From contig JANJXX010000010.1 of assembly GCA_024720975.1 (NCBI GenBank), forward strand, positions 1-34,819: a stretch of DNA of 34,819 nucleotides. The letters run 5' to 3'. Under the pieces are notes generated by a model. It was not told the DNA's origin and searched no databases. It worked only from the letters and a program-made list of their open reading frames with translations. The position numbers were made by a program, and so were the translations under genes. This stretch comes from Thermoproteota archaeon (lineage in GTDB: Archaea; Asgardarchaeota; Njordarchaeia; Njordarchaeales; Panguiarchaeaceae). Numbering within the stretch: the stretch's first letter is position 1; each line of letters begins with the position of its first letter. This document shows, piece after piece, positions 29,332 to 34,819 of this stretch.

Positions 29332-30336
29332 TTGCCTATAATAACTGGGCAAGTTGTTGTTTTTAAATGCCCTCAATGCGGGAGACGAGAGTTCTATACA
29401 GTCAGGAGGGAGGATATTGATGAAGCGCTTTCTCATGAGGTATCTAGAGTAGGATTTTTCCATGGTGACCATATACTTCTTTGTGGGTTAAACAGATTAG
29501 GCGAGCCCGTAACGAGGGGTATAGACTCACCAAACAAAAGAGATTTGTACTCTAGCAATAGGATCTACGCAGAAGGCTTCTTACTAGTGTGTACTGAAAA
29601 CCCACTGGGTAATTTTCAAATAGCTTTAGTTGACACAGACCAAAAAGTACTCGACTTACGCTGCTTTGCTGGAGATCTTAGTTCAATCCTGTTAATATTT
29701 TGGGGAGAAATCGACTCAATACTTAGAGAGTGTAGTTCGCGGGGGTATTTCATAATACCTATGGGTGCTAATCTTATCAAAATGAAAATTAACCACCTGG
29801 TTGCGTTTATCAAGATTATTGAGGGAAGGAATTTAGATAAGAGCATTGAATTCCTATCCAGCATACTTGAGAGGGATGTAGATGCAATAATTTCAGCAGT
29901 TAATAGTATTGATAAGAGTTTAAGGGATTCTTACAAATCGCTTCCTGAGCTTATTTGGTACATCCTTCTCCTTAAAAACGTTTTTCCAATGAATCCACCA
30001 GTGGTGACTTTGAGCAGGGTCATGCACTACATTGAAAATAGGCGCACCAACGTTCCTAATAAGGCTGATGTGGAAAACATTGAGTTGATATTAAGAGCAG
30101 ACGGGACTCTAGTAAGTATCTGTAGCAAATCAGAACTAATACAGCTATCAAAACCTGTAGCAGTCCTACTTGGACACGTCGAGTTTGTGGATTTAATCTA
30201 TGACAATAGAGGCGAAAAGATAAGCTTAGAAACACTTCTGAGGAACATTAAGTGTGAGCATGTGGGGCCTTTTCTAGACTTCCTAAGAGAGTTAGAAAAG
30301 CGTAAATTAGTTGGGATAAGTCCAAAGAAATTGTGA
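29332..30336 (+). CDS. hypothetical protein with N-terminal CxxC...HxxH zinc domain (paralogous domain to upstream gene)
   Basis: KCPQC...FFHGDHILL...RG. Starts 10 nt downstream of the previous gene. Possible C-terminal winged helix (FLRELEKRKLV). Confidence 0.7.
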   Translation: MPIITGQVVVFKCPQCGRREFYTVRREDIDEALSHEVSRVGFFHGDHILLCGLNRLGEPVTRGIDSPNKRDLYSSNRIYAEGFLLVCTENPLGNFQIALVDTDQKVLDLRCFAGDLSSILLIFWGEIDSILRECSSRGYFIIPMGANLIKMKINHLVAFIKIIEGRNLDKSIEFLSSILERDVDAIISAVNSIDKSLRDSYKSLPELIWYILLLKNVFPMNPPVVTLSRVMHYIENRRTNVPNKADVENIELILRADGTLVSICSKSELIQLSKPVAVLLGHVEFVDLIYDNRGEKISLETLLRNIKCEHVGPFLDFLRELEKRKLVGISPKKL

Positions 30337-30360: not shown

Positions 30361-32130
30361 TTAGCCCTGCTCCATTATCTGTCTGACGAGATCAAGTTTT
30401 CTTCTCTTGTGTTCTTTAAATATTTCTGCTGCTTTTTTGTAGTTCAGTACTTTAACTACCACTGGGAAATTAACTGCTTCTCCATGTATTAGTACCTCCT
30501 GTCTCTCAAGTACTGGTACTACCTTACGAAGTAAACTTGCACGAGGTGTCCCCATTAATGCTGCTCCTATATCTCGCTCATCAGTTAGTGTGAATACAAA
30601 GCTTGTCCACAGCATACTTATTACATCATCGTCTAGCTCACTCGGCTTTTGATCTATCACACAAAGTGTCACGCCTTTCTTTCTCATTTCCCTCGCAATT
30701 TCTCCAAATGGTGACATGCGATAAGTCTCCCTTCCCAAAAAGTTATGCGCCTCCTCTAAGAATATAACTATTTTCGTTTTCAGCTCCTCTCCCCTCACAA
30801 TCATACTCAATATCCTTTCTCTGAGGCGTCTGGCTATAAGGTTTGCCATTATCATGTACAATGGTGTCTCCTTTTCGTACTTACCCATGCTTATTACTAC
30901 ACTCCGACCGTTCTCGCTTACCAAATTGTCAACAATAGCGTCTATTGAACTCTTCTTCGTCTGCTTCTCCTCCTCCGTTATGTATGTGTATGGATAGTTG
31001 AGTAGTTGTTTAAGCTTTGCTGTTTGTGATCTGAAAGACGAACATGCAGACGGTCCAAGCCTATCTTTTATTACTTTTAGAATCATTCTCCTCAGTTTAT
31101 CCGCGTCCTCAACATTAGTTCTTTTCTTTATCTCATCCAAGATTTTTCTTCCTTCAATATCTTTCATCATCTTATCTTCAGAATCCTTATCGAGTATGAG
31201 ACCCCATATCCATAAGTCACCAAGTTTGCATCGTTTGTCTCGTTTTAGGATTGATGCGAACTCTCCCAAATGTTCAAGGAAGCCTTCGCTCACTCCAAAA
31301 ATTGGTGCTATGAGCCTCAAGTCATCTACTGTTAGGTCACTATAGTCTATCCTCAGTTCTTCCAGACCAGCTTCTTTTGCGAGTTCTAGGTCTGGTGTGT
31401 AGCGTAAGAATTTGTTTGAGAACAGGTTCATGCTCGCAATACCATCTGCTATCACATTTCCCTTATTGTCCCTCAGCTTGAGGCTATATTCAGAGTGCAT
31501 ATCAAATATCAGAAGTCTCAATCTCTTACTTTCTTTATCTACTGAACTTTTCTGATCATCGTACAGTATCATGTAACCGGCTAGAATATTGCCTAAGAAT
31601 GTCTTTCCCGTACCTGATTTGCCAAATATACCAAAGCTTAATTCGATCAGCTTCTCTATATCTACCGGTATGTATACTGTTGATTCGCCTGGTACTTTCG
31701 GAGTACCTATATTCCATAAATTCTTCTGATTCTCCTCACCAAAGAATACCTTAATATCCTCTTGGCGCACCTCAACGACGTCTGAATAGAAGTTAGGTAT
31801 TGTATCAGCGCTCCTCGGCATTTCGCCAGAGGATTGACCTAGGAGAGCTATTTCGATAAACCGAGTGTTTACATAGTCCTTGATAGCGTCCATTGCTATG
31901 TCCTTCAATTCATTGCCAATTCTAGATCCATAGAAGCTCTTAACAGTCTCTCCTGCCGATTCTATACCAATGTCAGTTATTACTCCGAGGTAGTGGTGTT
32001 TAGTACCTTTAATTACTACTAGGGCACCAACAGGATAATTCTCGATATTCTCATCCCTAACTAATACTTTCAAACCCCTGCTTAAGCTTCCCTCAATGAC
32101 TTTTCCAAGGGGACCAGCCAACTTATTCAC
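30361..32130 (-). CDS. herA: HerA/FtsK-family ATPase (HAS barrel + DUF87)
   Basis: N-terminal HAS barrel, Walker A GIFGKSGTGKT, IFDMHSEY, Walker B IFLEEAHNFL, IAREMRKKG and DQKPS. Confidence 0.92.
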   Translation of the reverse strand: MNKLAGPLGKVIEGSLSRGLKVLVRDENIENYPVGALVVIKGTKHHYLGVITDIGIESAGETVKSFYGSRIGNELKDIAMDAIKDYVNTRFIEIALLGQSSGEMPRSADTIPNFYSDVVEVRQEDIKVFFGEENQKNLWNIGTPKVPGESTVYIPVDIEKLIELSFGIFGKSGTGKTFLGNILAGYMILYDDQKSSVDKESKRLRLLIFDMHSEYSLKLRDNKGNVIADGIASMNLFSNKFLRYTPDLELAKEAGLEELRIDYSDLTVDDLRLIAPIFGVSEGFLEHLGEFASILKRDKRCKLGDLWIWGLILDKDSEDKMMKDIEGRKILDEIKKRTNVEDADKLRRMILKVIKDRLGPSACSSFRSQTAKLKQLLNYPYTYITEEEKQTKKSSIDAIVDNLVSENGRSVVISMGKYEKETPLYMIMANLIARRLRERILSMIVRGEELKTKIVIFLEEAHNFLGRETYRMSPFGEIAREMRKKGVTLCVIDQKPSELDDDVISMLWTSFVFTLTDERDIGAALMGTPRASLLRKVVPVLERQEVLIHGEAVNFPVVVKVLNYKKAAEIFKEHKRRKLDLVRQIMEQG

Positions 32131-32747
32131 CTAAGAGCCTCGAGAATACATTCGAGATATCTACCAACATTCTTTGGATCAGCCATGTATAGTGGTCTTG
32201 CTAGCGCGCGTACTAAACTTTGGCAGTTGGGATCCTTACTTAGAAAATAGTCCCTGTGTGTAAAGAAAAGCCCACGGAGCGTAAGTGGCTGAGCGCCAGC
32301 CTCTATCACATACCTTAAAAAGTCAAAATTCCATTCTCCATTAGGTCTAAAGAAAGCGTCTAGGAGATCATTAGAGTTCACTAGAAATGCGAGATCATGA
32401 AGTCTCGGCATCGATGCAGGGACATGATATAGTGTATTCCCTTTTACATGACTGGAGTAAACAACTGTTAATACTAGCCTGTGTTGGTAATCAATATCAG
32501 GATACTCCCTTAAAATCTCCTCTCGCCCCTTCCTGAGCGGATGTATTGATCCGTGTCTTGGTTCATGAGCAATGTTGACTGCTAACCCCACGGGTTTGAC
32601 TTGATCTGAGTTTATCGCTATTATCGACCCTACACGAATCTCGGAATAATGTTCTGGGTATACAAAAATGTCTATCTCCCCCGCGCGAACGCAGGCCACT
32701 TCACCTATAGCATTCTCTTTTACAGCAAAGAGGCTCGCCCAAACCAT
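32127..32747 (-). CDS. stand-alone HAS-barrel domain protein
   Basis: IGEV...VGSIIA...VGL..NI...P...P LHD pattern. Overlaps the herA start by 4 nt. Confidence 0.7.
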   Translation of the reverse strand: MVWASLFAVKENAIGEVACVRAGEIDIFVYPEHYSEIRVGSIIAINSDQVKPVGLAVNIAHEPRHGSIHPLRKGREEILREYPDIDYQHRLVLTVVYSSHVKGNTLYHVPASMPRLHDLAFLVNSNDLLDAFFRPNGEWNFDFLRYVIEAGAQPLTLRGLFFTHRDYFLSKDPNCQSLVRALARPLYMADPKNVGRYLECILEALR

Positions 32748-33541: not shown

Positions 33542-33687
33542 CTGGGATAGTGCTTTTTATTATCATTTAAAGTATCAAAGCTAAACACTTGTATTATGAA
33601 CTAGTTATGCATAATATTAATTCAGTGTACATGAGTTGACTTCTTAGAGTATATTTCGGTTAACGCTTGGAGAAGTAACCGTTATCA

Positions 33688-34709
33688 TTACCTGAGAAAG
33701 TCTCCCATTTCGTTAAACCACTTTGGCTCCTTGAATTTCATTGAGCATGCTAAGCATATCCTACCTTTAGGTGTTTCGCCCTTCAGAATCTTTCTAATAC
33801 AGCAAAGTACTCTGAGAAGAAGAATTGCGTCGAGCGTTATATAATGCTTCTTATCCTTATGTGAGCAGTAGCTTAGAACTCCTCTAGGCTTTCCGCGTAT
33901 CACATCCTTTAAGATACCTCTTATCGCTTTTTCTTTCGGGTAAGAGGCAAGTTTAAACATGAATTGAGGCATTTTTCCTTCAATTCTTGCTAATCCAATC
34001 TTCGCAAAACCTCCAATCTCTGAAGCATAATTAAGTCTCAACTTTAATTTTCCAACAATCTCCTTATTCCCTATCTCATTTATCAGGTAATCGATCACCT
34101 GATCAAAACATCCCATACAGAAGCTAAAATCTTTAACCGGAATACTTTTCCCCTCTCTAATTCACAGAAGTAGGTTTCTTCTTTACCGCCCTGCTGGATT
34201 TCTCTGGTGATAAACATGCTCTTTCTGCATAGATCCTGAGGAAGGGTTATCTTATTTGTGAGCTTCTCAGTCAAGTCCAGTATATCCCTTATACTTAAAT
34301 AAAACATGATCCAATTAGACCACTTTTCAGGCCCTATCTGGCGGGTGGATGTTCTCTCAATATGATATTTTTCTGGCCTAATGATTAAACGCACTTCTTT
34401 CTTAGTTTCATCTAATTCAACCTCAAGTGTGCACCTTTCCTCTGGGATAATGTAGGCTTCCCTTCCATCCTTAATCGTCCTCTCCCATCCCAAGTCTAGG
34501 GGGCTTTTACCGTATCTGGATGGATGAATAAGCCTTTCGATTGTTATTGGAGGCTTCCCGGAAACCCAACCTCGAAAATTGGCATATATTATTGGAAGCG
34601 GAGTTGGCTTTGGAACCCTAAAGCCAGCGCTGATGAGCTCTTCCTGAAGCTCAAGCGATGCTGGAAAATAAATTTGAAGCGACTCTATATCATAGGTTCC
34701 AACATGCAT
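33688..34709 (-). pseudogene. PhoI-like type II restriction endonuclease gene split by a -1 frameshift (pseudogene, recoded gene or sequence error)
   Basis: ORF 34095-34709 (TYDIES.QIYFP, ITIERLI, YH.ERTS, PEKW.NW, REIQQGGKE) and ORF 33688-34116 (FS.CMGCFD, FAK.G.A.I.GK.PQ, IRGILK, GKPRG.L.YC.H) match consecutive halves of Pyrococcus PhoI as recalled. Joined they give ~340 aa. Confidence 0.65.
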
Positions 34710-34739
34710 GCTTTACTCTTCCTTTTTCATACGATTTAA

Positions 34740-34758
34740 GGGTTTTTATACCTTCTTG
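34740..34758 (-). promoter_or_regulatory. BRE-TATA promoter candidate for the PhoI-like gene
   Basis: Minus strand CAAGAAGG-TATAAAAA-CCC, ~35 nt upstream of ATG 34709. Confidence 0.45.
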
Positions 34759-34819
34759 TTGTTGCAACACTCTTTTGCATTTTAACTCTTTCCTGGAGGA
34801 ATGTTCTAAGCTTTTTAGC

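Follow-up and report, generated by a model that had tools for sequence, protein, structure and literature searches.

Is the endonuclease gene at the end of this contig a recoded gene or a broken one? The stretch of DNA analysed here (the window, 34,819 nt) comes from an Asgard archaeon and carries, near its end, a minus-strand gene that is laid out in two frames. The upstream ORF (34709..34095) encodes a 204-aa product made up of 188 native residues (ending ...ELERGK) followed by 16 out-of-frame residues; the C-terminal half is encoded in the -1 frame, in a region that is open over 34161..33688, with its first ATG at 34116 and its stop codon at 33690-33688. A G GGA AAA heptamer lies in the 0 frame at 34152-34146 (GGA is codon 187, for Gly187, and AAA is codon 188, for Lys188, with the preceding G completing the motif), and a -1 slip at this site would generate ...ELERGK-SIPVKDFSFCMGCFD. 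A preliminary description of the locus noted the -1 relation of the two halves, the confinement of the frame switch to their overlap, the heptamer with its predicted slip product and the otherwise intact state of both halves. All of this stands: sequence and ORFs agree, and no further lesion is found in either half. The preliminary description went on to prefer recoding or homopolymer phase variation. The reading favored here, with a probability of about 0.8, is that the gene belongs to a horizontally acquired PhoI-type cassette whose endonuclease is knocked out or strongly attenuated by a recent and real 1-nt deletion. An attractive recoding candidate is thereby corrected to a probable young pseudogene in a decaying restriction-modification cassette.

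Both halves match the PADLOC type II restriction endonuclease profile PDLC03542, and do so consecutively (profile positions 3-181, E 3e-39, and 180-307, E 2e-27, of 316). (What this means operationally is that two ORFs that might have matched unrelated families instead occupy adjoining positions of the same profile.) They align in the same consecutive manner with Pyrococcus horikoshii PhoI, the N-terminal half with residues 6-183 (41% identity, E 2e-44) and the C-terminal half with residues 182-315 (44% identity, E 1e-30), jointly spanning that protein end to end, so that the initial designation "PhoI-like" is correct. A search with the N-terminal ORF yields 54 clusters, nearly all of them single proteins of ~320-345 aa and several of them named PhoI by NCBI. 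A profile of 25 full-length members yields 136 clusters, including the 318-aa P. horikoshii protein (P0095; UniRef name PhoI) at E 1e-127. Neither half is assigned to a family by Pfam or NCBIfam, nor are the full-length relatives, and the PhoI name was therefore traced via this profile search to the P. horikoshii protein. (A scan of genome contigs with two peptide patterns recovers 20 loci; P. horikoshii is not among them, since the patterns do not fit its protein.) The window gene can be assigned, on homology, to the endonuclease of a PhoI-type type II restriction-modification cassette. It departs from the uninterrupted ~320-345-aa ORF of the family by a 1-nt deletion after codon 188.

The nature of the break is seen in DNA alignments with relatives. 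The closest of these, L001 (Logan assembly SRR21619497; 93.6% nucleotide identity), has GGGGAAAAGGTATT in place of the window's GGGGAAAA-GTATT or, divided into codons, GAG AGG GGA AAA GGT ATT CCG in L001 versus GAG AGG GGA AAA G-T ATT CCG in the window. The gap (column 564 of the alignment) falls at 34144..34145, where GT in the window corresponds to a glycine codon, GGT or GGC, in relatives; the lost base comes from the GG that follows the G4A4 run and not from inside a long homopolymer. The break is a plain 1-nt deletion that turns the Gly189 codon from GGT to GT. L001 is in frame at this site and yet has the identical heptamer, which there codes for Arg-Gly-Lys. At the corresponding position the heptamer is missing from three other relatives: contig C22 of the window's own metagenome-assembled genome (MAG) has GGG AAA (a synonymous difference), L002 (GCA_038850145.1, a Bathyarchaeia MAG) has GTG AAA and L003 has GGT GGG, none of which is slippery.

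Other members of the family are broken in other ways. The gene of L003 (107-1118; protein P0015, 72% identical, present in three independent assemblies, L003, L004 and L005) is split by a +1 insertion of its own, located where an A4 run meets G (between GGAAAA and GG), 35 nt upstream of the deletion in the window and within the same purine-rich stretch. L001 carries a 1-nt insertion at ~1250-1290, near its 3' end, by which the last ~25 residues, including the terminal CxxC, are replaced. Because these lesions differ in sign and place, they point to repeated inactivation by mutation of purine-rich sequence rather than to a conserved recoding device.

Purifying selection has acted on both halves of the gene: dN/dS is 0.17-0.23 relative to L001 and 0.07-0.10 relative to C22 and L002, and of the downstream-half changes that fall on the branch of the window 7 are synonymous and 4 are non-synonymous (P = 0.003 against neutrality). 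It follows that the downstream half was selected for most of the branch and that the deletion is recent. An old pseudogene is ruled out by the low dN/dS of both halves. A recent pseudogene, which the preliminary description had kept as a fallback, is supported; the pattern of selection fits a young pseudogene and recoding equally well.

The AlphaFold2 model of P0003, an in-frame relative that is 88% identical, forms one compact beta-rich unit (pLDDT 89, pTM 0.89), in which the break maps to the turn of a beta-hairpin, between strands 177-183 and 190-198. The C-terminal half contains the family-invariant CxxC (C198, C201), K237, K246, K253 and C282-x-H284. Lacking this half and these invariant residues, the 204-aa product is likely to have lost its function under standard decoding and is most likely inactive; the window gene is accordingly best described, provisionally, as a young pseudogene or hypomorph.

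The preliminary description found no methylase in the window. The 3' end of one is present (34736..34819, minus strand), immediately upstream of the endonuclease gene: the last 27 codons and the TAA of a beta-class N6_N4 DNA methyltransferase gene, which the end of the contig, and of the window, cuts off. The methylase stop and the endonuclease ATG are separated by a spacer of 26 nt (34710..34735), the two genes being tandem and co-directional. A TATA-like element, TATAAAAA, at 34750-34743 lies within the methylase 3' end; C22 and L002 are without it and have GATAGAAA instead. The methylase segment in the window aligns with the methylase 3' ends of L001, C22, L002 and C28 (another contig of the same MAG). 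The complete gene is carried by a sister contig, L040 (GCA_024720985.1), which matches the window at 100% identity across 3725 nt and extends farther upstream. Its methylase gene, 26 nt upstream of the endonuclease ATG, is intact and encodes a 303-aa PF01555 protein in which TSPPY and DPFLGSG motifs are present. This protein shares 90% identity with the C22 methylase and, compared over its full length, 61% with the enzyme that adjoins PhoI in P. horikoshii. The latter is presumed to be M.PhoI, which is listed as a GGCC m4C enzyme (PMC11033074). The endonuclease gene is thus adjoined by an N4-cytosine methyltransferase of the kind expected as cognate partner in the PhoI family, and the question of a GGCC-type methylase, raised at the outset, finds a probable answer directly upstream, in an enzyme of predicted m4C type.

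The comparison with the PhoI system of P. horikoshii OT3 (R.PhoI; M.PhoI, GGCC, m4C) is close in its components, the two endonuclease halves and the PF01555 methylase with its SPPY motif having the identities given above, and less so in its architecture. The P. horikoshii genes are convergent and overlapping, whereas those of the window stand in tandem, methylase then endonuclease. PhoI does not have the extra C-terminal tail of ~25 aa, with a second CxxC, that is found in the window's clade. The window's host is an Asgard archaeon and its endonuclease gene is frameshifted. The window endonuclease would presumably share GGCC specificity. In the genome, GGCC occurs 1832 times against an expectation of 2173 in a second-order model; the ratio of 0.84 is the lowest of all 256 tetramers, the next most depleted being CATG (0.855) and GATC (0.889). 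An initial reading by eye had found no evident avoidance of GGCC; the tetramer is in fact mildly depleted, although not eliminated, which is consistent with past GGCC restriction pressure.

The window is the whole of contig C1 of a 29-contig, 1.36-Mb, 81%-complete MAG (G000). Comparison of the same locus among strains was anchored on a neighboring 206-aa protein that is 100% conserved on 23 contigs. A variable segment (window 33574-34819) lies between an HAD hydrolase/54-aa gene and the genes of a 186-aa membrane protein, the 206-aa protein and a HerA-like protein, with flanks that are 97-99.9% identical; among strains this segment is a hypervariable island. The methylase gene together with the frameshifted endonuclease gene is found in the window and in L045, L047 and L048. 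In L046, which keeps the methylase, the endonuclease gene is reduced to its last ~240 nt. In L044, and at the start of contig C28, the methylase is accompanied by an endonuclease remnant and a 570-aa STAND/nSTAND3-like NTPase, and L049 has unrelated ORFs (299 aa, 79 aa) in place of the cassette. No intact endonuclease gene is seen at this locus among the compared sister strains, and every allele in which some part of the cassette survives still has the methylase gene, either complete or truncated by nothing more than a contig end. The loss of most of the endonuclease gene from sister strains at the same locus indicates that the endonuclease is dispensable and decaying in the species. The window allele is the earliest stage of this decay. 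The variable island is directly adjoined by a pair of genes, one encoding a 589-aa HerA-like ATPase (30361-32747, minus strand; PF01935 DUF87, PADLOC HerA models) and the other, upstream and overlapping it by 4 nt, encoding the 206-aa protein, which has no family match; the pair may serve in repair or in defense.

Three diverged versions of the cassette, with 80-87% nucleotide identity, are held in the MAG: C1 (33688-34819), C22 (1-1858; L007) and C28 (1-1314; L008). Their presence implies that, at this locus, the bin combines more than one strain or population. The MAG's contigs break at the cassette. C28 has an intact methylase and only a remnant of the endonuclease gene. The 3-kb contig C22 carries an intact methylase together with an endonuclease gene that stays in frame up to the contig end, where it is cut off; the C22 copy shares 86% identity with that of the window. 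Over 1859 nt the C22 cassette matches that of L002 at 98.3% identity, with flanks that do not match. The GC content of C22 is 0.426, against ~0.40 in the rest of the bin; either the cassette has moved between phyla very recently or C22 was assigned to the wrong bin.

The endonuclease gene is not found in the 4 same-genus or the 9 same-order genomes searched, and the sole match in the same phylum (G024) shares its coordinates with an Atabeyarchaeia chromosome, CP147779.1 (L026). Homology to the cassettes of other hosts ends exactly at the endonuclease stop codon, and the flanks beyond it are unrelated. Absence from relatives and sharp borders mark the cassette as a mobile accessory element.

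Leaky or programmed -1 frameshifting at G GGA AAA, which would yield a little full-length endonuclease (differing from the native protein only by Gly189Ser) and so keep a toxic nuclease low, is the explanation to be weighed first against a pseudogene; it is unlikely. Its appeal lies in the placement of an X XXY YYZ heptamer in the 0 frame, inside the 21-codon overlap and directly before the deletion, as is characteristic of a programmed -1 site, in a gene whose two halves are free of other damage. In-frame heptamers of this form (Y = A or T) number 1208 in the 1104 long ORFs of the genome, with 76 reading exactly GGGAAAA. The chance that one falls in a 21-codon overlap is ~0.06 and, in a related intact gene, a fraction of ~0.026 of random 1-nt deletions would be rescuable by such a heptamer; the placement thus has a chance probability of ~0.03-0.06. 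Since purine runs favor ribosome slippage as well as indels during replication, much of the coincidence between heptamer and deletion is explained.

There is also a precedent in the fucA1 alpha-L-fucosidase gene of Saccharolobus solfataricus, in which -1 frameshifting takes place at A AAA AAT (PMC1616953, PMC8211752). The full-length product of fucA1 has been shown in vivo and in vitro, the slippery site is flanked by rare codons and a putative stem-loop, and the relatives are full-length (PMC8211752). The likeness is that in both cases an archaeal gene is divided between the 0 and -1 frames, a slippery heptamer lies where these frames overlap, and the relatives are full-length. With full-length relatives and a conserved slippery region alike on record for fucA1, in-frame relatives by themselves are compatible with leaky expression. 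The contrast is that the fucA1 product is demonstrated, whereas the window gene is known from its sequence, shows no comparable structure in its predicted fold and has a heptamer that is not conserved.

Conservation of shift and signal across diverged homologues, the other mark of a programmed -1 site, is lacking at this locus. The ~130 homologues are single in-frame ORFs, and the shift is restricted to one near-clonal lineage (0-1 SNP in 4.8 kb). The heptamer predates the shift, being present in the in-frame L001, and is not shared by C22, L002 or L003. Known stimulators of frameshifting are spaced 5-9 nt from the slippery site (PMC8211752). For the 106 nt downstream of the heptamer (34145-34040) the predicted pseudoknot-free fold has -19.5 kcal/mol and is no better than that of shuffled sequences (z = -0.82), and its single stable hairpin lies farther off, starting 43 nt downstream. 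The preference of the preliminary description for recoding is not borne out, and the outright deletion of the endonuclease gene in sister strains, as well as the breakage of a second family member by a shift of opposite sign, also speak against it. Should slippage nevertheless prove true, the gene would join fucA1 as the second cellular -1 frameshift in archaea and the second such archaeal case to be experimentally tractable; restriction enzymes and Asgard lineages would each gain their first example.

That the true gene is in frame, one G having been lost in building the consensus near a contig end in a strain-mixed region, is distinctly unlikely. The site is ~670 nt from the contig end, the MAG contains the cassette in three diverged versions, and Ns in the scaffolds suggest short-read assembly. 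On the other hand, GAGAGGGGAAAAGTATTCC is identical in three more NCBI MAGs (GCA_024720985.1, GCA_038843635.1 and GCA_024720875.1), so that the same G4A4G1 stands in four MAG assemblies, which belong to at least two accession series (JANJY*, JAWBRX). The three further MAGs differ from the window by 0-1 SNP over 4819 nt, the single SNP being at window position 30189 in two of them. The exact 204-aa product is present on six public contigs. (The exact 142-aa product that would start from the downstream ATG is not on record, as gene callers choose another start, and neither allele was recovered when JGI metagenomes were scanned for exact patterns.) Sharing of the allele by four assemblies makes a one-off assembly error, another possibility raised initially, unlikely, but speaks less against a systematic sequencing error; as these assemblies are near-clonal, they are silent on long-term maintenance of the frameshift.

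Reversible length change in a purine run, which would toggle the endonuclease within the population, is very improbable as an account of the allele. Phase-variable restriction-modification genes are established in bacteria, and the indel adjoins the G4A4 run. It does not lie within that run, as homopolymer phase variation had been taken to imply, and the element that changed is GG to G. Contingency genes have long simple-sequence tracts, much longer than 4 nt, that are heterogeneous in length; the G4 and A4 runs here are each just 4 nt and have the same length in four assemblies. Moreover, G4A4 is not special, as runs of 4 nt or more number 15 in the endonuclease gene. Just as improbable is a functional split, in which the two ORFs would be translated separately (the downstream one from a GTG overlapping the upstream TGA or from the ATG at 34116) and the chains would assemble into active enzyme: gene callers do annotate a 136-aa downstream gene with a 4-nt overlap with the upstream stop, but either start loses the invariant Cys198 and strand 190-198, the GTG start loses Cys201 as well, the break is in a hairpin turn of a compact predicted unit and not in a linker, and the 54 homologue clusters include just one other such N-terminal fragment, broken elsewhere.

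The history that would account for these observations under the preferred reading, a young pseudogene, can be outlined as follows. A cassette in which the methylase gene precedes that of the endonuclease would have been acquired horizontally. Deletion of one base from the Gly189 codon (GGT to GT) would then have left a 204-aa product without the whole C-terminal half and, with the m4C-type methylase upstream intact, methylation would be kept while cutting was lost. The heptamer would be ordinary Arg-Gly-Lys coding sequence inherited from an in-frame ancestor; we infer that it adjoins the deletion because purine runs are sites of replication indels, and not as a recoding signal. Such a mutational hotspot, like the loss of activity itself, is a probable rather than a directly observed part of this history.

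Decaying type II cassettes, in which a pseudogene of the endonuclease accompanies an orphan methylase, provide the closest general parallel. The window likewise has an intact methylase beside a disabled endonuclease; nothing essential differs, and the window is a fresh example with a single lesion so far. The case is an ordinary first step in the decay of a restriction-modification pair. For annotation, its value is in placing PhoI-type GGCC-like cassettes among the mobile accessory modules of a hot-spring Asgard archaeon, in providing a hypervariable locus at which the methylase outlives the endonuclease, and in identifying a site at which the MAG is a composite of strains.

Two observations concern the PhoI family at large. 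A sequence search of the PDB with the family yields nothing, and the P0003 model, compared as a whole, has no clear structural match there (Foldseek best E 0.03; VIA wide best Z 3.6; PabI, 2dvy, Z 2.7). The model itself is confident, and the nuclease fold of this characterized family may be one that has yet to be described. Finally, the 607-aa protein P0113 contains PF01555 and also fits the PhoI-family profile over ~88% of its length; it is apparently a natural methylase-endonuclease fusion.
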